Source of the DNA: Methanobacteriota archaeon
Lineage (GTDB): Archaea > Thermoplasmatota > Thermoplasmata > SG8-5 > JAGLSY01
DNA: 64,000 nt
Assembly (NCBI GenBank): GCA_020696385.1
Contig: JAEHCQ010000006.1
Location: 108,455-172,454, forward strand
Reading direction: 5' to 3'
Positions within the stretch are counted from its first letter, which is position 1; each line of letters starts with the position of its first letter. Under the pieces are notes generated by a model. The model saw only the letters and a program-made list of their open reading frames with translations, did no database searches and was not told the DNA's origin. Positions 16,541 through 28,797 of the stretch are shown here, piece by piece. A program made the position numbers and the translations under genes.

Positions 16541-17995
16541 TTATCCTTTCATAACACCCATCGGCACCAGTTTAGCAACCAGTTTGGAAATGCCAGCTCC
16601 ATCCGCGACACCAACAACATCATCAACTGATTTGTAGGCTCCAGGTGCTTCTTCGGTCAGCACCTGTCCGCTTGCGGCCCTGACATAGATGCCATCCTTT
16701 GCCATATCGCTCTTTATTTGATCTGGATTGAAGGAGTTTATAGCCTTCTTTCTGGACATCATACGTCCCGCACCGTGGCATGTTGACCCAAAGGTCTCTT
16801 CCATCGCGGTCTGGGTGCCTGCAAGCACATAGCTCGCAGTTCCCATCGTGCCAGGTATCAGAACTGGCTGTCCCACATCGCTGTATACATTTGGAATATC
16901 ACTCATGCCAGGCCCAAATGATCTTGTGGCTCCTTTGCGGTGCACCATGACCTTCCTGCGCTTTCCATCCACAATGTGTTCTTCTTTCTTCGCGATATTG
17001 TGGCATACATCGTAGACGAGCTTCATGTCCATATCTTCTGCCTTCTGCTTCATCACATTCTCGAATGACTCACGCACCCAGTGAAGGATCATCTGGCGGT
17101 TGGCCCATGCATAATTTGCTCCACTGGCCATAGCACCGTAATAATTCTGTGACACCTTGGATGATATTGGAGCACATGCAAGTTGTCTGTCTGGCAGGGA
17201 TATGTTGAATTGCTTGATGGCGGATTCCATTTCGCGGAGGTAATCCGTTGCTATCTGATGGCCAGCACCTCTAGAGCCCGTGTGTATCATGACCGTGATC
17301 TGGCCTTCGCCAGTGATCCCGAAGGCCTTGGCAGCTTCCTGATCATATATCTCTTCCACTTTCTGTATCTCCAGAAAGTGATTGCCAGCACCCAGGCTTC
17401 CCAATTGTGGGGCTCCTCTTTTCTTCGCTTTGTCGCTGACCTTGGAAGAATCTGCGGCTCCCATGTTTCCATTTTCTTCTGTAAATTCGAGGTCAGATTC
17501 CCAACCATATCCATTCTTTACAGCCCATTCGGATCCATTGTCCAGAACATCTGAAAGTTCATTTGGTGATAGTTTCACCTTGCCTTTTGATCCCAGGCCA
17601 GATGGCACATTATGGAATATTTCATCAACAAGGTTTCTGACCTTCGGTCTGACTTCCGCCTCGGTCATATTGGTCCTGACCAGCCTAACACCGCAATTGA
17701 TATCGAACCCAACTCCTCCTGGAGAAATTACGCCTTCATCGATATCTGTAGCGGCCACACCACCAATTGGGAATCCATATCCCCAGTGGATATCTGGCAT
17801 TGCCAAGGACTTGCCGACAATGCCTGGCAGAGCAGCTACATTGGCAACCTGTTCTGGAGCATTGTCCTGCTTCACCAGTTCAATTAAATTGTCATCTGCA
17901 TATATGATACCAGAGGTGTTCATCTCCTGTTTGTGAGTTTGCGGTATCTCGTATCTGAAGTCATCTATCTTTTTCAGTTCGCCTTGCCATTTCAT
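16541..17995 (-). CDS. rtcB: RNA-splicing ligase RtcB
   Basis: MPDIHWGYGFPIGGV, GFDINCG, GAGNHFLE, HTGSRG, HRKGATR, HGAGR, EEAPGAYK. Confidence 0.97.
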   Translation of the reverse strand: MKWQGELKKIDDFRYEIPQTHKQEMNTSGIIYADDNLIELVKQDNAPEQVANVAALPGIVGKSLAMPDIHWGYGFPIGGVAATDIDEGVISPGGVGFDINCGVRLVRTNMTEAEVRPKVRNLVDEIFHNVPSGLGSKGKVKLSPNELSDVLDNGSEWAVKNGYGWESDLEFTEENGNMGAADSSKVSDKAKKRGAPQLGSLGAGNHFLEIQKVEEIYDQEAAKAFGITGEGQITVMIHTGSRGAGHQIATDYLREMESAIKQFNISLPDRQLACAPISSKVSQNYYGAMASGANYAWANRQMILHWVRESFENVMKQKAEDMDMKLVYDVCHNIAKKEEHIVDGKRRKVMVHRKGATRSFGPGMSDIPNVYSDVGQPVLIPGTMGTASYVLAGTQTAMEETFGSTCHGAGRMMSRKKAINSFNPDQIKSDMAKDGIYVRAASGQVLTEEAPGAYKSVDDVVGVADGAGISKLVAKLVPMGVMKG

Positions 17996-18091
17996 TATCT
18001 CACCTCTGGTCGCACATGCATACACACATGCAATTACTATCTCTGATATTACATCATGTACTTAAGATTGATACCTGGAAAACGATAAATT

Positions 18092-18331: not shown

Positions 18332-19630
18332 TCAGATAATTTTCTCCCACTTGAACAGATCGAGGACCTGTGAGAGCGTGCTACCACGTTTTATCTCTTC
18401 TCTAACACGATTCTCTCTCTCAAATACATCCAGTGCCCGGTTGGCTATCTCGACTGCAACATGCTTTGGAATGACGACAATACCTGTTTCATCACCCACT
18501 ATCCAGTCGCCAGTTCTTACCTTCTGACCACCACAAACAATGTCAATTCCAATCTCGCCATGTCCTTTTGGCTCGCCTGCACATGGTCGTAGATGTCTGG
18601 CAAAAGCAGGGAAATCCATATTCTGGATCTCGTCAATGTCTCGAATTGCTCCATCAATGACCACTCCTGAAAGCTTTCTCTGTTTACAACTCCATGATGC
18701 CAATTCTCCCCAGACAGCTATCTTTCCACTTCCTGCATCGATCACAAGAACATCGCCTTCATTTGCTCCGTCAATGGCCTCAACTGGCTTTGCCCAATCA
18801 CCGTCAATGGTCCTGACGGTGAAGGCTCTTCCGATCATCTTTCCATTCCTCTTGATATATGGCTTGATGTTGACCATGGCTCCTTCTTTGTGCATGGCAT
18901 CTGATATGTTAGGCGTGGATACCTTTTCCAGTGCCTCCCTTATGCTCTCCGCACTGTATTTCTTGAAAAGATCTGTACTGACTGGTATCATCTCATCAAT
19001 GGCCTTCTGAATGTCTGCAGTTGCCTTTGTTACATCATTCGCTTTGATGATCGCTCCTCCGACAATGATGATCGAAGCACCATTGGCGATGGCTGTTGAC
19101 GCGGTCTCTGAATTTATCCCGCCTGCAACCGCGATAGGTAATTTCGTGATCTGATAAAGCATCTTGACAAGATCAAATGGTTCTCCGCCAGTCATTTGAT
19201 GATCAATGCTCGCGTGCACGCAGAGAATGTGCACGCCGAAGCCTTCCAGCTGTCTAACACGCTCCTCCATATTGTCCACGTTCATCAGGTCCGCCATTAC
19301 AAGTGAACCGTACTGGCTGGCAGATTTTACAGCTTCCGTGATAGTCCCGTCATCTGACAATCCCATGATTGCCACGACATCCGCGCCAGAGCGTGTGGCC
19401 ATCTCGACCTCCACTCCGCCGACATCCATCGTCTTCATATCCGCGACGATGGTCTTGTCCGGGAACTCGGCTTTTAATCTTCTAATAATATTCATGCCCT
19501 CGCTCTTTATCAGGGGAGTTCCAGCTTCTATCCAATCGGCTCCGCCTGCAACGGCTTCCCTGGCTATCTGTATCGCGCGATCTCCTTGAATAAGGTCCAG
19601 GGCTACCTGGAGCTTGACCTTTGATGTCAT
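18332..19630 (-). CDS. hxlA: 3-hexulose-6-phosphate synthase fused to RraA/demethylmenaquinone-methyltransferase-like domain
   Basis: LQVALD, IEAGTPLIKSEG, ADMKTMD; C-terminal STPNISDAM, AVWGELA, IDGAIRD, GDWIVGD; start set at MTSK. Confidence 0.9.
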   Translation of the reverse strand: MTSKVKLQVALDLIQGDRAIQIAREAVAGGADWIEAGTPLIKSEGMNIIRRLKAEFPDKTIVADMKTMDVGGVEVEMATRSGADVVAIMGLSDDGTITEAVKSASQYGSLVMADLMNVDNMEERVRQLEGFGVHILCVHASIDHQMTGGEPFDLVKMLYQITKLPIAVAGGINSETASTAIANGASIIIVGGAIIKANDVTKATADIQKAIDEMIPVSTDLFKKYSAESIREALEKVSTPNISDAMHKEGAMVNIKPYIKRNGKMIGRAFTVRTIDGDWAKPVEAIDGANEGDVLVIDAGSGKIAVWGELASWSCKQRKLSGVVIDGAIRDIDEIQNMDFPAFARHLRPCAGEPKGHGEIGIDIVCGGQKVRTGDWIVGDETGIVVIPKHVAVEIANRALDVFERENRVREEIKRGSTLSQVLDLFKWEKII

Positions 19631-19760
19631 TGATAACATGTAGAGAAGATGAGAGATAAAAGTTTTGCGTAGTATCTCAATAACCAAATTCCTGCATAAA
19701 CAATATATGAAAGATTGGATATAGCGGCTTCCAGAGACCAATAATAACACAGGTGATACA

Positions 19761-21167
19761 ATGACCTTGATGGTTCAAAACACACTATCCGGCAAGCTAG
19801 AAGAATTCGTACCAGTTAGAGAAGACCAGGTCGGCATGTACGTATGTGGTATCAACACATACGATGACTCCCACATGGGGCATGCGAAGGCCGCGGTGAC
19901 CTTCGATATTATCCGAAGGCATGTGGAAAAGAAGGGCTACAATGTGAAATATGTTATCAATTTCACAGATATCGAGGATCACTGTATCGAGAGGGCGATC
20001 AAACTCGACTGGCCCTTGGATAAGCTTACCGATAAATACATTGCCGAATACCACAAGGACATGTCCGCCCTGGGTGTGAGAAAGGCAGATGTATATCCTG
20101 TAGCCAGCCATCACATGGGGGACATAATCGATGCCATTCAAAAACTGATAGACAAGGGTATGGCCTATGAATCCGGCGGGGATGTTTATTTCAGAGTTGC
20201 AAAGGTCAAGAACTACGGCGTGCTATCCAAGCAAAAGCTTGAAGACATGCAGGCCGGAGCCCGTATCGATATTGATGAAAAGAAAGAAAATCCAATGGAC
20301 TTCACGCTCTGGAAAGTGAAGAAGGAAAATGAGCCATTTTGGAGCTCTCCATGGAGCGAGGGAAGACCCGGCTGGCATATCGAGTGCTCGGTGATGTCGA
20401 TGAAGTATCTTGGCGAGACCTTCGACCTTCATGGCGGAGGGACCGAACTGGTATTTCCACATCATGAAAATGAGATCCTGCAATCCGAGGCATTGTCCAG
20501 CAAGCCATTTGTCAAATATTGGCTTCATGGTGGTCTGATGAACGTGGGCAGTGAGAAGATGTCCAAGTCCCTCAATAATTTCTTCACCATCAAGGATGTG
20601 CTGAAGGAGTTCGATCCGCTTGTTGTTCGATTTTTCCTGCTGAACACCCATTACAAAAAGCCGATAGATTTCAATGATACTGCCCTGGAAGAAGCAAAGC
20701 GCTCTCTTAGCAGGCTCCAGAACACACTGGACAATACCAGGAACGCACTTGCAAAGGCCGATGATACGATAACTGATGGCCTGGTAGGTATTGCCGAGCA
20801 AGCGATCAAGAACTTCGACAAGGCCATGGACAATGATTTCAATTCCAGGGATGCAATCGCATCCATGTTCGATTTTGCAAAAGAGGTAAACAAATATCTC
20901 GAATCCACTTCAATAAGCAAGAACAGCATCGAAGCAATATTGAGAAGCTTCGATGAATTCGACGACCGCCTCACGATCTTCAGAGAATCCTCTGGAGGAC
21001 TGGACAATGAACTGGTCGATGATCTCATGCAGGTGCTTATCGATATCCGCAAGGATGCGAGGGCCAGTAAGAACTTTGAATTATCTGATAAGATAAGGGA
21101 TAAGCTGAAGGAACTGGGCATCACCATCGAGGATACTGCCGATGGTGTTAAGTGGAAAATGTCCTAA
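19761..21167 (+). CDS. cysS: Cysteine--tRNA ligase
   Basis: MYVCG..YD.SHMGH, GRPGWHIECS, FPHHENE, KMSKS. Confidence 0.97.
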   Translation: MTLMVQNTLSGKLEEFVPVREDQVGMYVCGINTYDDSHMGHAKAAVTFDIIRRHVEKKGYNVKYVINFTDIEDHCIERAIKLDWPLDKLTDKYIAEYHKDMSALGVRKADVYPVASHHMGDIIDAIQKLIDKGMAYESGGDVYFRVAKVKNYGVLSKQKLEDMQAGARIDIDEKKENPMDFTLWKVKKENEPFWSSPWSEGRPGWHIECSVMSMKYLGETFDLHGGGTELVFPHHENEILQSEALSSKPFVKYWLHGGLMNVGSEKMSKSLNNFFTIKDVLKEFDPLVVRFFLLNTHYKKPIDFNDTALEEAKRSLSRLQNTLDNTRNALAKADDTITDGLVGIAEQAIKNFDKAMDNDFNSRDAIASMFDFAKEVNKYLESTSISKNSIEAILRSFDEFDDRLTIFRESSGGLDNELVDDLMQVLIDIRKDARASKNFELSDKIRDKLKELGITIEDTADGVKWKMS

Positions 21168-21234: not shown

Positions 21235-22314
21235 TTATACTCCTTCGCTTTCGTATTTTCTTACCAGCCTGCGCAAAACTTCAACGCTGAAGCTCTCTTC
21301 CTCGAAGGGCTGCTTCCTCATCCTGTGGGGTAGAGCCATTTCCGCGGCCACGATAACATCGTCCGCAGTGGATTCCAGATGGCCTTCAAGAGCGGCATTG
21401 GTCCTCGCTGTCTTCTCAATTATTATATCGCCTCTGTGGCCATCTATATTGAAATCAATTCCCAGTCTTGTGATTATCGAGAGTATGTGGTCAGGAGTGG
21501 TTACGTTGGCAAGAATTTCCCTCGCTTCCACTATGGTCTTCTTCAATTCCTCTATATCGTCCTTGAATTCTTCTCTGAAAAGCCATGGATCACTGGCAAA
21601 GGCCTTTGTCTTTTTGATTATCTCCACCCTCTGCTCGACATTGTCAATGCCCTTTACCTCTGCCTGAAGTGCCAGACGGTCAAGCAACTGTGGTCTCAAT
21701 TCTCCTTCTTCAGGGTTCATACTTCCGATAAGAATGAACTTGGATGGGAAGTTAAGACTTATTCCCTCTCTCTCAACGGTAACAACGCCCATTGCTGCTG
21801 CATCCAGAAGCACATCGACTATATTGTCCTCAAGTAGATTTATCTCATCCACATACAGGATGCCTCTGTGAGCCTCTGCGAGTATTCCCGGTTCAAAGGC
21901 CTTAACACCCTGTGACAGAACTTTTTCGATGTCTATGCTGCCTACAAGCCGGTCCTCCGTGATATTAAGCGGAAGATCTACCACATTGATCGGAACCCAA
22001 GTCTCTTGGATTTCTCCTTTTTCATGCTTGGCCTTACATTCAGTACAGTATTTTTCAGGATCCTTTGGGTGACAATTCAATTTGCACCCATCCACGATCA
22101 AGATCTCCGGGAGAATATCCAATAAAGCTCTAACAGCGATGGATTTGGCCGTGCCTTTTTCGCCCCTGATCAATACACCGCCCACATTTGGATTGATGAT
22201 ATTCAGCAAAAGGGCTTTTTTCAAAACTTCCTGGCCAACTATGCCATTGAATGGGTATACAACCCTTTTCGGTTGAGCTTTGGATCCACTTTGTTCAGTA
22301 TCCATTTTGCACAC
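21235..22314 (-). CDS. ChlI/BchI-like AAA+ ATPase (chelatase subunit I family)
   Basis: [74 protein letters not shown]. Confidence 0.88.
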
Positions 22315-22318
22315 CCGC

Positions 22319-25300
22319 TTATTCTAGATCGGCTTCCCTCTTATCAATAAGCCTTCTTAGCATTTCTTCACTGAATTCTTCATCATCTTCGAATGCCCTT
22401 CTCTTCATCCTGTGTGGCAGGGCCATTGAGGCAGCTACGATAATATCTTCTGTGGATGTTTCCATTCTACCTTCAAAGGCCGCGTTTGCACGTGCCGCCC
22501 TCTCTATTATGATATCCGCTCTGTGGCCATCGACATTGAAGTCCATGCACACCTGAGCAATTAGCTTGAACATCCTTTCTGGAGTGGTCACCTTGGATAG
22601 AAGTCCATTCGCTCTTTCTATCTTATCGACCAGTTCTTTCCTCGATGCCTCGAACTTCTCCCTGAATTTCAATGGTTCCGAGGTGAACTCTTCACGACGT
22701 CTCACAATATCTATCCTCTTACCAACATCTTTGATACCGATAACATCAGTCTGTAAAGCGATCCTGTCCAATATCTGTGGTCTCAATTCACCTTCTTCAG
22801 GGTTCATACTTCCCACGATCAAGAACCTTGATGGATGGCTCAGACTGATTCCTTCTCTTTCAATAGTGACAATGCCAGAACCTGCTGCATCAAGTAAAAT
22901 ATCAACTATATAATCATCCAGCAGGTTTATCTCATCAACATACAGGACACCTCTATGAGCCTCGGCAAGTATGCCCGGCTCGAAGGATTTCACACCTTCT
23001 GTAAGAACTTTCTCGATGTCTATACTTCCAACGAGACGATCTTCAGTAACATTCAATGGCAGATCAACGACCTGGACCTGTCTCGTGTGGACCTTTAAAT
23101 TACCTGCCTTGTGTCTGGCCGCACATTCTGTACAGAATTTATCTTCTTCCTTTGGATCGCAATTGAACTTACATCCTGTGACCTCGATATCTGGAAGGAT
23201 CTCAGATAGCCCTCTGACCGAAACAGATTTTCCGGTTCCTTTCTGTCCTCTGATTAGAACCCCGCCGATCTCGGGATAAATTGCATTGAGAGTAAGTGCG
23301 CTCTTCATCTTTTCCTGGCCAACCATGGCGGTGAATGGGAATAGAACACGCTTCTGCTTACCTCTGTCAAGCATCTTGTTTGCAGCCTCTTTAAGCTTCA
23401 GCTTGTCTTCCTCATCCATTCTGTGTCTCATCTGACTTTCCAGCTCAGTTCGGAGATTCATCATCTCCTGCTCTTTCATTCTTAATTTTTCTCTATTGTC
23501 ATCGAGCAGGTTCTTCTGAATGTCCAGTTCACTTCTTGAATGGATCAGTTCCTCTTCCTTCATCTTGAGCTTCTCTTCCTCCTCCATCATCATGTCATCC
23601 GCACGTTTCTCCAGCTCTGTCTGGATGAGACTTTCCATCTCTTCTTCCTTCATACGTAGCTTTTCTTCCTCTTCAGCCATGTGCTGGGTCTTGAGCTCCA
23701 ATTCTGAACGTATGGCAGAGACCTCTTCCTCCTTCATTCGGAGTTTCTCTTCTTCCATCTGGATCTGGTCTGAAAGTGATTCTAATTCTGTCTTGATCTC
23801 ATTGATCTCTTCATCCTTGAGGCGTAATTTCTCTTCCTCTTCCTGGATCATCTGTTCATAATTTTCTTCCAGCTTCTGCTGTATCTCCTCAATTTCCTCT
23901 TCCTTTTCTAGATAAAGTTCAAGCTCATCTCTTGAATTATCTGCAAGGACATCTGGGTATTTGAAAAAGATCAGGTAGAAATCAAGGATAATTACCATAA
24001 TAAGAATGATGAGAGTTATCGTTATAAGGATCAAGTCACCTTGAAGGAATTGGGAGCTATAGGCCACATCCATACCAAGACCAATGGCCATGAGGCTTGA
24101 TGGGATCAGTGATATTACGAGATTGGCCTTTCGATCCCAGAAATGAAGTATGGCGGAGCTCATTGATAATAACATGGCGAGAAGTAGGATCGATATGCTT
24201 GAGATATTACCAAAGGTCGGAACAAGGCTGAATGATACGGACGGTACTCCCGTATCATTAATCATATTGGTCACTATAAGTATGAATTCGACCAGAACGA
24301 ATATGGCAAGGAATATGTAGAAAAATAATGTTATCAAACTCATATTGTAATAATTGAAGAAACCGTCCTTCTTCTTTTCTTCATCAAGTATCTCATCGAT
24401 CTCTTTCTTCTTTTTTCGATCCCTGATCTTTGCCTCTATCTTGTCTTTTTTCATCTCGGCCTTTGGATCATATTCATCTTCAAGTCCATCAGAGTCGGGA
24501 TCTGCATCCATATCTTCTGGATCGTCAATGTCGCCAGCTTTCTTTTTGCCTTTCTTACCCCATCTGGATGCCTTTTTCTCTTTTGCTTTTGTATCTTCTT
24601 TTGGTTCTTCATCCACTTCTATTTGATCGTCATCTGGTGTTTCTTCCACTTCCTCGTCTGAGACTGTTTCATCTTCAACACCGTCCTCTTCAACAACATC
24701 TTCAGTGGTCTCTTCTTCGACCTCTTCTTCATCAATAGTATCTGGCTCAAATGTTGTAAGGTCTGTATAACAATTAGAACATATCTCGGCTGTTTTATCG
24801 ATGCCCTTTGCACATGATGGGCATCTCTTTGAATGGGTTAGGTCATAGTCACAGATCGGGCACTTTTCACTGTCTGTGTTGATAACATCATCACACGATG
24901 GACAGAGCATCTGATCATCCTCTATTATGATTTCCTCGATCTCCTCATCTGGATCACTGTCCTCTTCTTCTATGATCTCTTCTTCCTCTTCCACAACCTC
25001 ATCTTCGGTTATGTCCATTTCCTGGCCAGGATCATCATCATCTGTTTCATCATCCTCATCAACTGTTAAGGACTCATCTGGAGAATCTCCTCCGATCGTT
25101 CCAAGATCCCATTCGCCAGAGCTCTCATCTGATTCTTCTGATGCAACCTCTTCTTCCTCTGGGTTTTCTTCGATCTCTTCATCTCCAAGATCAAGGTCTA
25201 GCTCTTCTATGGTTGAATCTACATCATCATCAAGATCCAGATCACTTAGATCAAGGCTGTTAGAATTATCTTGCTCTTCTTCTATGATCTCTTCTTCTTC

Positions 25301-25393
25301 ATCAACAGGCGGCAGGTCAGCTCCACAATTGCTACATTCGGTTGTCGAATCGTCGTATGTCAGTGCTTGGCACATGAGGCATATTCTATCCAT
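22319..25393 (-). CDS. Multidomain membrane protein: zinc ribbons, acidic tract, 4 TM, repetitive coiled coil, C-terminal ChlI-type AAA+ domain
   Basis: Three CxxC..CxxC ribbons; four hydrophobic segments; [11 protein letters not shown] repeats; [35 protein letters not shown]. Confidence 0.85.
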
Positions 25394-25409
25394 TTTTAAC
25401 CTACCATTC

Positions 25410-26090
25410 TTATTTTCCTGTTTCTATCAATTTTGCTAATTTATTACTGTTCAATCGCCTGTATACGATAAAGCCAGCTCCGAGCAATGCAGCCATGAAT
25501 GAGATACCTATTGGCACGTTCACATCCTCGTCGAAATATGGTGGGATCTCATAATCTGCCGAGAACGGCCCCTGATAACCACATCTGGCCTCTTTCATAT
25601 CATAGGCATCGATCTTGATGACATCTCCTGAGAATTGGGTTAATGCAAAGCTAACATTCAGTCCAATGGGGTCAATTGAATTATCCTCCCACTCGCCTAT
25701 ATGATATGGGAGATACACTGAATTATCTTCATCCAGGTAATTCCCGGTAGTCTCAACCCAATCAATGACAGCAATTCTTGCATTCAAGTCCGTGTACTGC
25801 TTATAGGTTATATTGCAGATCTCATGGCCATTTCCATCCAGAACGACCAAAGTTATGTTGTAAATGTCACTCCAGCCATTCAGATCCCTCAATGAGATAT
25901 GAACCATTATTAGACCATTGTGATCATCCACAAATACATCGACCATTGAGGGTGGATCATTGGATACACCAATACCACCGGCCTGAGCATCAACAATGTC
26001 TGGCAAATAGACAAAAGCAAGGCTGAACACTAACAACAAACTGAATATTTTTCCAATTGTGATTGGATTCATCCTCCTCCCGTTTGACAT
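25410..26090 (-). CDS. Exported protein with signal peptide and C-terminal membrane anchor, unknown function
   Basis: Hydrophobic N-terminus ending VDA-Q; C-terminal PIGISFMAALLGAGFIVYRR. Confidence 0.75.
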   Translation of the reverse strand: MSNGRRMNPITIGKIFSLLLVFSLAFVYLPDIVDAQAGGIGVSNDPPSMVDVFVDDHNGLIMVHISLRDLNGWSDIYNITLVVLDGNGHEICNITYKQYTDLNARIAVIDWVETTGNYLDEDNSVYLPYHIGEWEDNSIDPIGLNVSFALTQFSGDVIKIDAYDMKEARCGYQGPFSADYEIPPYFDEDVNVPIGISFMAALLGAGFIVYRRLNSNKLAKLIETGK

Positions 26091-26165
26091 AGATACCCCT
26101 CTGAACATTTAAAATCGGGTTTGTATAACATATACTTTATTATATATATTAATTATCCATAGAAC

Positions 26166-27587
26166 TCAAACCCATTTTTTCTTCTTTCGTCGCTTGTAGC
26201 CTGAACCTCCTTTTTTCTCGGCTTTCTCTTCTTCTTCCTTTCTTTTTCTTTCTTTCTCTGATTTGTGACCTTGATATGCCATTATCAGGAATGCCAATAC
26301 AATTCCTACAATGATCAATGATATTGCCAATATGTTCATTGGGCCAAGTCCGACATCTTCTTCCTCCTCCAGAAAGGTCTTGGCCTTGACCACAATGGTT
26401 GTTGTGAATTGGCCGGAGTTTGCGAAATCATCGGTCTCAGCCATGAAATTAACGTAGGCCAGCATAGATGGCTGACCTCTTGGTGGGGCAATTGAACAAT
26501 TAATAGTTACAAGCATATGGGTCTCTGTATCTGAAGATACCTGTGCATACACTGGCTGTGTTACTTCAATATCATTTTGAAGTATATTGACAAGGGAGAG
26601 TTTATCTACCTCTGTAGATAGATGGCTATCCTTTGTTCCAGTTAAGTAAAGATCGAGCCCCAGCTCATCATTGTAATCTGCGATCAACCTGCTTTTGTAT
26701 TGGACCACCAAACCAGACATTTGGAAGATATCATATCCGGGTCTAGCCACCTTGACGATCACATTGAATGCAGATTCTGGTGCAAGTATGAATGATATCA
26801 TGGTCGGTGTCACCAACATCTTTGGCTCCCCATGTATCCTACCTTTTACAGTGAATTCTCTTGGACTCCATTTCTCTGCTCTGAATGCTATATGATGAAC
26901 TCTCTCCTCACCCAGGTGACTTATGCCAGTGGAGTTGGTAGTTGTGAATAACTCATCATAATCATCATATGATATATCAAAGTCCATAGGAACGTTGCCT
27001 GAGTTCTTTGTTGTGAAATAAGTGGTATTCTGTGGATCATCTTGCATGTATGAATCGATCGAATCCGTTTGGAAAGGAGACACATTGAAATAGAAATTCG
27101 GACCTGAAAATGCTATGCCAGACACTGGTGCTTCCACTATGAAGGTCTCATTCCATTCTTGAATTGCCTGGTCATCAACGATTATCGAAAGGATCCATTG
27201 TCCTGGCGTGGCGTTCCCAATCATACCAAGATAAAAGCAATATGTATTTTCATAGACACTGGACAGGTCGGAATTTATGAAATCAGTGTACAAATGATCA
27301 GTCCAGATAGAATTATTGTAGGACCAATGATAGTAATTCGTTATATCCGTGTTATTATGTTTTATGGAATAGGCGTACACATCAATAGTATTGGCTGGCG
27401 AGTTCAATTCAATGGTCAGATTGTGCAAAACACCCGCAACTGTGATATCCATTCCATCACGCTGTCTTAACACCTCTCCCGATATGCGAAGCTCCACCGA
27501 ATCGACCAGCTGGGCCTCGGCAAATGTTGGAATAATGGATATTAGAAATAATAGACTCAATATTATAGCCAAAGGTTTCTTGATCAT
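26166..27587 (-). CDS. Exported beta-rich surface protein with C-terminal TM and Lys/Glu-rich tail, unknown function
   Basis: MIKKP signal ending AEA-Q with GGTGA SD; many N-x-S/T sequons; TM then KSEKERKRKEEEEK...KRRKKKKWV. Confidence 0.75.
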   Translation of the reverse strand: MIKKPLAIILSLLFLISIIPTFAEAQLVDSVELRISGEVLRQRDGMDITVAGVLHNLTIELNSPANTIDVYAYSIKHNNTDITNYYHWSYNNSIWTDHLYTDFINSDLSSVYENTYCFYLGMIGNATPGQWILSIIVDDQAIQEWNETFIVEAPVSGIAFSGPNFYFNVSPFQTDSIDSYMQDDPQNTTYFTTKNSGNVPMDFDISYDDYDELFTTTNSTGISHLGEERVHHIAFRAEKWSPREFTVKGRIHGEPKMLVTPTMISFILAPESAFNVIVKVARPGYDIFQMSGLVVQYKSRLIADYNDELGLDLYLTGTKDSHLSTEVDKLSLVNILQNDIEVTQPVYAQVSSDTETHMLVTINCSIAPPRGQPSMLAYVNFMAETDDFANSGQFTTTIVVKAKTFLEEEEDVGLGPMNILAISLIIVGIVLAFLIMAYQGHKSEKERKRKEEEEKAEKKGGSGYKRRKKKKWV

Positions 27588-27762
27588 CAATTCACCCATT
27601 ATGCTCAGAGATGCTATATACATATATGCATGGCTAACATAGCTAAGCAACTTACTCAGATAAAGTTGGTTAAAGTATATATTATTTATGCGCGTGTGTT
27701 ATATAATATTACGTTTTAGATCACAAGATCCTGCTCATTGTACGCATCCCGTAATAATTTGA

Positions 27763-28776
27763 TCATATCAGATACATATCATCATCTATCTTGATGATCG
27801 TGGTCTCCTGACCTTCTGAAATATAATCCTGAGGCTTTTTTATCGTAATTGGCTTAAAAGTCACTGGATCCATGATCTGGATCTCTTTTTCCCCTTCATG
27901 AATTATGACTGCTTTGGAGATAGTATAACCTCCCATGTTCACAGTGAACTTATTGAACTCATCATATCTGATCTTCTTCTTTCCCCAGGTGTTCAGATCT
28001 TTTAAGAATGCAAAATTCTTCGATACAGAAGTAACAATATATGTATCCTTTTTATCTGACACGATATCATCCTTTCTCATCTTCGGGAGCCTTAACGAGT
28101 AAGTATAACGGAATACATCCTTTCCATCATTTTGCCCGAATATTCTGGATGTCTCTGTGACCTTGCCCCCAAAACGGCTCTGAAGATCCCGCACCTGGGA
28201 CTTTGATAATCCCGATGAGCCCATGTAATAATCTGTCCCGCCCTTTACCTTTGATTCCTTTGTCAGAAAGGCCTGCCTATCTGATTTATTCTCATCAAGA
28301 CTTTTATTGAGGAATCTGCTGATACCTTCCATATCTGAATCTGATGGATCTCTTCCATCACCTCTTATCTGGATGATGGCTTCAAAATATCCGCCTCTCT
28401 TTCTGCTACATACGTCACAGACCTGTTTCTTTGTTCTCAATTTGAAGCTCAATGGGATCTCAAGAAATAATTCCTCTATGTTTATCTCAACAGATAATTC
28501 GATCTGGAATTCATTCGTTCCCTCTGGGAATTCATCAAAATCTATGGACGGATCACTCACAAGTTTATCAAATTCCAGATTATTCTCTACTATTGTCTGC
28601 ATCCCATCGAATGGCCTGACCCAGGACGAGCTTCCGATAAGGTAATCTCCACATTCTGGACAAATAATGCGCTTGACATAAGGGGGAACCTTCACAAGCT
28701 CCCTGTCATCTATAAGGCATTTCTCGCAAAGATTTCCGTATGTTCTTTCATCAGAACCACATTTTATGCAATACAT
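27763..28776 (-). CDS. nmd3: NMD3 family ribosome biogenesis protein
   Basis: CIKCG..LCEKC, CPECG, CDVCSR..GGYFEAIIQIR, QIMDP.TF. Confidence 0.88.
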   Translation of the reverse strand: MYCIKCGSDERTYGNLCEKCLIDDRELVKVPPYVKRIICPECGDYLIGSSSWVRPFDGMQTIVENNLEFDKLVSDPSIDFDEFPEGTNEFQIELSVEINIEELFLEIPLSFKLRTKKQVCDVCSRKRGGYFEAIIQIRGDGRDPSDSDMEGISRFLNKSLDENKSDRQAFLTKESKVKGGTDYYMGSSGLSKSQVRDLQSRFGGKVTETSRIFGQNDGKDVFRYTYSLRLPKMRKDDIVSDKKDTYIVTSVSKNFAFLKDLNTWGKKKIRYDEFNKFTVNMGGYTISKAVIIHEGEKEIQIMDPVTFKPITIKKPQDYISEGQETTIIKIDDDMYLI

Positions 28777-28797
28777 ATCAAAACCTATCAATAACAC

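Follow-up and report, generated by a model that had tools for sequence, protein, structure and literature searches.

A ChlI-type AAA+ ATPase fused to a predicted four-transmembrane subunit and encoded with two putative surface proteins in uncultured Thermoplasmata

The S1-S2-BIG-CHLI operon

The DNA analyzed here is a 64,000-nucleotide stretch (referred to as the window) of contig JAEHCQ010000006.1, from a Methanobacteriota archaeon of the class Thermoplasmata (GCA_020696385.1). This archaeon is uncultured, as are all other carriers of the system described below. Four co-oriented open reading frames (ORFs) on the minus strand, tentatively referred to as S1, S2, BIG, and CHLI, are tightly packed in the window and encode two exported, C-terminally anchored proteins, a large protein ending in a ChlI-type AAA+ module, and a stand-alone ChlI paralog. 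The gaps between S1 and S2, S2 and BIG, and BIG and CHLI are 75, 16, and 4 nt respectively (with starts at 27587 and 26090). A sequence-only reading of the same DNA had described this arrangement, and the ORF list of the window reproduces it. The features of the operon are as follows.

26166-27587, minus strand: S1, 473 aa, type-I membrane protein
25410-26090, minus strand: S2, 226 aa, type-I membrane protein
22319-25393, minus strand: BIG, 1024 aa
24338-25393, minus strand: BIG residues 1-352, with three CxxC…CxxC zinc ribbons, two acidic tracts, and a basic juxtamembrane stretch
23969-24337, minus strand: BIG residues 353-475, a module of four transmembrane (TM) segments with an LH..D motif conserved at the cytoplasmic end of TM2
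23342-23968, minus strand: BIG residues 476-684, a coiled-coil stalk with six 28-residue (four-heptad) repeats around an 11-residue sequence
22322-23341, minus strand: BIG residues 685-1024, a ChlI-type AAA+ module with its lid, intact catalytic motifs, and a four-cysteine (Cys4) insert after Walker A
21235-22314, minus strand: CHLI, soluble 359-aa ChlI paralog starting 4 nt past the BIG stop codon
27614-27628, minus strand: AT-rich stretch 27-41 nt upstream of the S1 ATG, TATA-like by eye and in resemblance only
27592-27596, minus strand: Shine-Dalgarno-like GGTGA motif preceding the S1 ATG

Two of the starts were revised from the longest ORFs. The longest frame of S1 begins at a TTG at 27650, and the ATG at 27587 fits the N-termini of its orthologs; that of S2 spans 25410-26108, and its likely ATG at 26090, preceded by a purine-rich motif, agrees with ortholog starts. 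The operon is flanked on one side by the convergent plus-strand cysS (19761-21167) and on the other by an NMD3-family gene (27763-28797, by Pfam).

The large membrane protein and the two surface proteins

In BIG, a predicted 4-TM subunit is fused to a motif-intact ChlI-type AAA+ module via a coiled-coil stalk of fixed length, about 200 residues, which stands out among the features of the ChlI-bearing form. This agrees with the domain order given by the sequence-only reading (zinc ribbons, acidic tract, four TM segments, coiled coil, and AAA+ domain, followed by a separate ChlI paralog). The zinc ribbons lie at residues 5-23, 164-181, and 191-208, and library zinc-ribbon profiles match residues 164-208. 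The acidic tracts are 54% and 46% D+E, the 54% tract covering residues 31-160. The N-terminal region is variable among orthologs, ranging from 0 to 443 aa, and is missing in family f18.

The four hydrophobic segments fall within residues 356-472. As the external loops contain no K or R and the cytoplasmic sides are K/R-rich, the module fits a predicted topology with both the N- and C-termini inside. No relative of the TM module was found in PDB by profile search, and no protease domain was detected in BIG with Pfam or NCBIfam. The stalk consists of 206 aa with only one Pro and one Gly, and its hydrophobic positions are conserved at a spacing of 3-4 residues. The distance from TM4 to the AAA module is 193-214 aa in the 9 of 19 BIG proteins (including the one in the window) in which it was measured directly; measured to the Cys4 landmark instead, it is 263-284 aa in every one of the 19. 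Across orthologs the stalk aligns with hardly any gaps, and its length and its six repeats are kept across families.

S1 and S2 are both predicted to be type-I membrane proteins. S1 has a hydrophobic N-terminus ending in AEA-Q and S2 one ending in VDA-Q; these are putative signal peptides, and the xxA-Q motifs (putative cleavage sites) and C-terminal TM segments proposed earlier are present in both. In S1, the C-terminal TM segment is followed by a K/R-rich cytoplasmic tail, and the ectodomain of about 400 aa contains an ASH/PapD-like immunoglobulin (Ig) region and nine NxS/T sequons. The Ig signals are weak and sub-threshold (Cep192_D3 in 5 of 18 orthologs, HYDIN/VesB-like Ig in 3 of 18, and Hydin with an E-value of 3.4e-4). 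S1 itself has no Pfam match above the gathering score and no NCBIfam match. None of its 13 homologs has a functional name (two are labeled "hypothetical protein") or a Pfam domain. S1 is not in the Atlas, where a homolog (P0011) has CARDB/NPCBM_assoc (COG1470) feature scores of 0.89-0.90, which we take as a lead only.

S2 has a single beta-rich ectodomain of about 150 aa with three NxS/T sequons, a C-terminal TM segment, and a short cytoplasmic tail, and invariably adjoins S1 in the loci examined. No match to S2 was found in Pfam, NCBIfam, or PDB (the last by profile search), and homology between S1 and S2 was undetectable (hhalign probability 65%, over 20 columns). Its tail carries an NK-LA motif that is common to the S2 of all AAA-bearing loci and restricted to them, and this co-variation with the type of cytoplasmic domain hints that the S2 tail may contact the cytoplasmic part. 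A pairing of the long basic tail of S1 with the acidic tract of BIG was also considered, and was dropped because the same tail occurs in forms without an AAA module.

The ChlI-type AAA+ modules of BIG and CHLI

Pfam and NCBIfam searches matched Mg_chelatase, AAA_lid_2, and AAA_5 to BIG residues 685-1024 and to the whole of CHLI. For both modules the best NCBIfam families are TIGR02442 and TIGR02030, below their cut-offs. CHLI aligns end to end with solved ChlI/BchI chains (E-values of 1e-97 to 5e-87), with roughly 50% identity as judged from the printed alignment. As the sequence-only reading had noted, Walker A, Walker B, and the ELRPQxLDR region are kept in both modules of the window. Sensor 1 and sensor 2 are also present in both; the Walker A of CHLI reads GTAKS instead of GTGKS. 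All catalytic motifs are intact in 19 of 19 BIG orthologs, and Walker A and sensor 2 are present in 18 of 18 CHLI orthologs. With stricter script patterns, Walker B was missed in 7 of these 18, sensor 1 in four, and the arginine-finger stretch in three, chiefly in f18 loci.

In a maximum-likelihood tree, rooted at its midpoint only and with long branches among the CHL2 rows (CHL2 is introduced below), the AAA module of BIG and CHLI form sister clades (support 100/99) with parallel internal branching. Because the two clades branch internally in the same way, the tree points to one old duplication followed by joint vertical descent. The clades are placed next to Cys4-bearing bacterial ChlI/ChlD. 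The Cys4 insert, C-x3-C-x8-C-x2-C after Walker A, is present in all five ChlI-type modules of this system (BIG, CHLI, two in VWA3, and CHL2) and recurs in ChlI/ChlID relatives from bacteria and archaea; in the alignment, it is missing from cyanobacterial ChlI. Since the insert is shared with these relatives and three of the four nearest bacterial genomes carry CobN, the motor probably descended from ordinary class I chelatases with loss of the H subunit.

A ChlD-like protein pair and the missing CobN/ChlH

The sequence-only reading had described the operon as having no chelatase partners. Within the 64-kb window this holds, as no match to VWA or CobN was found there. It also holds for CobN/ChlH (PF02514) on a wider scale: there were no candidates in the genome carrying the operon (94.5% complete) and none in 22 genomes of its order. 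Among the 41 genomes searched (this genome and 40 relatives), three have CobN/ChlH, all in families f9 and f10, which have no S1. It does not hold for ChlD, as a permuted ChlD-type protein, referred to as VWA3, is encoded together with a further ChlI-like protein, CHL2, outside the window. A search of the genome for a ChlD/CobN set therefore returned only the ChlD-like half.

G000:C47:65101-68957 (L013:7102-10957): VWA3 + CHL2 pair, on the same contig 63 kb upstream of the operon

The 921 residues of VWA3 are arranged in the order VWA-AAA-AAA, with an N-terminal VWA domain ahead of two ChlI-like modules that lack Walker motifs. This differs from ChlD, where an AAA module and a linker are followed by a C-terminal VWA. 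The VWA domain of VWA3 nevertheless matches the C-terminal VWA of BchD/ChlD (TIGR02031, 264 bits; TIGR02442, 431 bits; PDB 2x31_A, 1e-9), and the DxSxS of the metal ion-dependent adhesion site (MIDAS) is present in 12 of 12 VWA3 orthologs. The gene for CHL2 overlaps VWA3 by 8 nt; its 365-aa product is ChlI-like, and both Walker A and Walker B are degenerate in it. No TM segments were found in VWA3 or CHL2; in VWA3, hydropathy over 19 residues peaks at 1.35, and the N-terminus is not hydrophobic. CHL2 is encoded downstream of VWA3 in every examined locus in which the downstream side is covered, although in G005 it lies about 8 kb away and is not adjacent.

In an even sample of 251 genomes of the class, VWA3 matches at E<=1e-65 were found in 38. 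The VWA3/CHL2 pair is present in 29 of 32 genomes with the long form of BIG, the three exceptions being 64-84% complete; as the relatives are kin, these co-occurrence counts overstate independence. Nine genomes have VWA3 and no BIG, of which eight are 57-78% complete and in the ninth (G032) the contig ends just after S2. The pair lies less than 15 kb from the operon in eight genomes (G006, G009, G022, G029, G032, G041, G043, and G065) of families f3, f5, f12, f15, and f18, and is directly adjacent to it in G006 and G009.

Three further observations concern the surroundings of the pair and VWA domains in the genome carrying the operon. The gene just downstream of CHL2 (L013:11435-12373) encodes a protein of 312 aa that begins with a TM segment, continues through a helical region, and ends in a double zinc ribbon; in other families, no such gene was found beside the pair. 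Upstream, LarC-like (Ni_insertion, PF01969) and LarB-like (AIRC) genes flank a PP-loop gene (G000:C47:60466-62803; L013:2466-4803), 3-5 kb from the pair. By eye these look like a nickel-pincer cofactor set, and this neighborhood is seen in this genome only. Lastly, a VWA_2 match (G000:C11:126775-127101) falls inside an 8676-aa open frame that would encode a giant protein.

Taken together, we propose that the product of the operon is a membrane complex confined to some uncultured Thermoplasmata, in which a class I chelatase motor was taken over for a membrane task and does not serve as a tetrapyrrole chelatase, a proposal to which we give an even chance. An alternative is a non-canonical class I chelatase that inserts metal into a tetrapyrrole or other cofactor with an unrecognized, possibly membrane-bound substitute for ChlH/CobN. 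The close similarity of CHLI to solved ChlI and the ChlD-type VWA would suit such an enzyme. In addition, the genome encodes HemB and HemC and so makes tetrapyrroles, a SirC/Met8-like gene is present, neither CbiX nor CobN was found in it, and the Lar-like genes lie close to the VWA3 pair. However, the SirC/Met8-like protein may itself chelate iron, the Lar neighborhood is confined to one genome, and CobN is absent from all genomes searched in the order. We know of no chelatase consisting of I and D subunits only, and the membrane tether, the stalk, and the strict linkage to S1 and S2 have no role in chelation. We therefore consider a chelatase highly improbable.

Conservation of the operon and an older S1-S2-TM module

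Whether the four genes co-occur elsewhere had been left to a synteny search. Among 40 loci of other genomes, defined as the surroundings of S1 matches, the complete S1-S2-BIG-CHLI order recurs in 16, from eight families (f1, f2, f3, f4, f5, f12, f15, and f18; genomes G002, G005, G006, G007, G009, G010, G012, G013, G016, G022, G029, G041, G043, G065, G074, and G154). Four further loci are cut by contig ends (L029, L037, L074, and L076), and the rest are other forms. In the class sample, the S1 profile matches 52 of the 251 genomes and the BIG TM region matches 37. The TM module gave 40 matches, of which 33 have an S1 match no more than about 3 kb away on their contig; of the other seven, four fall on contigs that are short or split, and the remaining three are weak matches.

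In all of these forms S1 and S2 are followed by a multi-TM protein, whose cytoplasmic part varies. Besides the ChlI-bearing form, there is a zinc-ribbon form of about 300 aa with the ribbon at the C-terminus (L033, L061-63, and L071-73), a form whose third gene product has TPR-like ends (L057-60), and one locus (L065) with a 1301-aa third protein containing FG-GAP repeats. In another class of the phylum, 23 of the 35 genomes in family f45, and some in f57, match the S1 profile; there, the third gene carries PAS or DUF4332. An exhaustive profile search of 1.84 billion proteins yielded only 119 representatives of the TM-module family. A Pfam scan of 106 of them (E-values up to about 4e-9, with the 13 weakest left out) found PAS_9 as the cytoplasmic end in 28, DUF4332 in eight, zinc ribbons in about seven, ChlI in six, and TPR in about three. 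The recurrence of the three proteins with different cytoplasmic ends shows, at the level of gene order and profile matches, that S1, S2, and the predicted 4-TM protein constitute an older and rare three-part envelope module of Thermoplasmata's phylum, Thermoplasmatota, and none of its three parts is functionally annotated.

One zinc-ribbon form is followed directly by a gene (L061:3174-5141) whose 655-aa product combines a coiled coil with a KaiC-type ATPase domain; this may represent a second, unrelated way of attaching an ATPase.

The variety of cytoplasmic ends raises a different possibility, namely an outside-in receptor in which S1 and S2 would sense an extracellular or envelope cue, the 4-TM module would relay it, and the ChlI/ChlD-type AAA+/VWA machine would remodel a cytoplasmic target. 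The same S1-S2-TM module bears PAS, DUF4332, zinc ribbons, TPR, or ChlI, with PAS the commonest end, which suggests signaling rather than mechanics. Proteins combining DUF835 (an inactivated KaiC) with TPR are encoded near the operon or the VWA3 pair in seven loci of several families, a further hint of signaling; PMC5847659 lists DUF835, as an inactivated KaiC, among the output domains of archaeal response regulators. On the other hand, no kinase, REC, or other output domain is fused to the system or conserved near it, PAS is more often an input domain, so that the surface side would be the output, and a stalk of fixed length fits a mechanical link or a spacer equally. We regard the receptor as a possibility, though not a likely one. 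Because the surface and TM part is an independent module that carries PAS, zinc-ribbon, or TPR ends elsewhere, a signaling role in general is about as plausible as a purely mechanical one.

The tandem DUF835-zinc ribbon-TPR proteins lie at L038:6032-9084, L075:1430-4461, and L036:14489-17936, and at C22:96500-99635 of the genome carrying the operon.

Neighboring genes and large secreted proteins

Secreted proteins of 720-1070 aa are encoded between the VWA3 pair and S1 in G022, G032, and G043, and an array of large secreted paralogs of these, none with a Pfam domain, occupies G000:C11:425000-467000 in the genome carrying the operon. In f45 genomes (L077, L080, and others), giant surface proteins with frames of 641-3103 aa, most of them above 1500 aa, share with S1 an N-terminal domain, which corresponds to its residues 3-154. 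At least five genomes (G352, G424, G430, G442, and G483) encode such giant proteins no farther than about 10 kb from the S1-S2-TM module, and a C25 (gingipain-type) peptidase adjoins the module in L080 (G352).

These neighbors are relevant to a third alternative, a device for the assembly, anchoring, or export of large surface proteins or of the surface layer. Such a device would be analogous to the MoxR-vWA-Ig-like membrane system that PMC5898192 predicts for other archaea, where the arCOG01314 neighborhood is proposed to be a new secretion system. Yet the large-protein neighbors are not conserved across families, the window itself contains none, and no translocon-like component was found, all of which makes this role improbable in our view.

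The housekeeping flanks (cysS, NMD3, MCM, and glmS) are conserved only within the genus or family and are uninformative as to function. Elsewhere in the window, an OMPdecase/HUMPS-family domain is fused to an RraA-like domain (18332-19750) next to a gene that by eye encodes RtcB (16541-18025). A search for anti-phage defense with PADLOC gave no match for five of the six proteins, and CHLI had one weak AAA match to RtcR.

A possible mechanism

Our reading of the operon as a chelatase motor taken over for a membrane task would work as follows. BIG and CHLI would build an active ChlI-like hexameric ring, perhaps 3:3; the 4-nt spacing of their genes suggests coupled translation and thus similar amounts of the two proteins. 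A 3:3 ring would gather a three-stranded stalk up to about 30 nm long, given that a coiled coil rises 0.15 nm per residue over some 200 residues. Each VWA3:CHL2 pair has three dead AAA modules, and two such pairs could make a ChlD-like second ring that presents the VWA domains. These ring and scaffold steps draw on established knowledge of the I and D rings of Mg-chelatase. ATP hydrolysis in the active ring would then be coupled through the stalk and the 4-TM bundle to the ectodomains of S1 and S2. We favor as its outcome inside-out control or remodeling of a surface function, for example adhesion or the arrangement of envelope proteins.

In its most specific form, this would be a trans-membrane actuator in which a mixed BIG:CHLI ring docks to a VWA pseudo-ring and, over a rigid stalk of about 30 nm, ATP switches or pulls the two Ig-like surface proteins via the 4-TM bundle. 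We offer this form tentatively and think it rather unlikely.

Several points weigh against the membrane-task reading as a whole. In family f4, the ChlD-like pair lies on contigs other than that of the operon, and the kinship of the relatives weakens the co-occurrence of the pair with BIG. The TIGR02030 (BchI-ChlI) scores of the two modules, 396 and 405 bits, fall below the equivalog cut-off of 466.95. The chelatase alternative draws on the tetrapyrrole genes and on the missing CbiX, and the prevalence of PAS among the cytoplasmic ends and the DUF835-TPR proteins favor signaling over mechanics.

Comparison with known systems

To our knowledge, ChlI/ChlD motors have been described only in soluble form, working with ChlH/CobN in the metalation of tetrapyrroles. 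The present system resembles class I Mg/Co chelatases in that the AAA module of BIG and CHLI are full-length ChlI homologs with intact motifs, in having a ChlD-type VWA with MIDAS and dead AAA modules as a likely scaffold, and in that its closest outside relatives occur in CobN genomes. It differs in that no ChlH/CobN is present, one ChlI carries four TM segments and an approximately 200-aa stalk by fusion, the VWA comes first in the ChlD-like protein, which has two AAA modules and is accompanied by a separate fourth ChlI-like protein, and the operon includes two surface proteins. The system thus shows an I/D motor retained intact after loss of its H subunit; throughout a whole group of uncultured archaea, this motor is joined to the membrane by fusion and linked to surface proteins.

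Mechanotransmission ATP-binding cassette (ABC) systems such as MacB, FtsEX, and LolCDE also couple a cytoplasmic ATPase via a 4-TM unit to working extracytoplasmic domains. Here, the ATPase belongs to an unrelated class, the ectodomains are separate type-I proteins, and a long stalk separates the membrane from the ATPase. If the actuator model is correct, the system would be an archaeal, AAA+-powered counterpart of these ABC systems or of inside-out integrin activation. FtsH and archaeal LonB likewise hold an AAA+ ring at the cytoplasmic face of the membrane; in contrast to them, BIG has no protease domain, is tethered by a coiled coil of about 200 aa instead of a short linker, and belongs to the ChlI clade.

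The nearest idea that we found is that of the MoxR-VWA systems (Bat-type operons; arCOG01314 in PMC5898192), in which an AAA+ ATPase and a VWA protein likewise occur together with membrane proteins that have Ig-like ectodomains. However, the ATPase here is of the ChlI type (best families Mg_chelatase and BchI-ChlI) and not MoxR/COG0714, VWA3 is predicted to be cytoplasmic rather than secreted or membrane-bound, the ATPase itself is membrane-tethered, and no flavodoxin-domain protein like that of arCOG01314 was seen. The sequence-only reading had not recognized the architecture from any described system. Consistent with this, neither a membrane-tethered ChlI nor the S1/S2/TM module was found described in the full-text literature searched, which did not cover the arCOG tables of PMC5898192, where the families might be listed. 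The building blocks are known, and their combination appears to be new. If the proposed coupling is true, archaea would have a further, new means of transmitting energy or information through their membrane, and the range of tasks attributed to AAA+/VWA pairs would be broadened.

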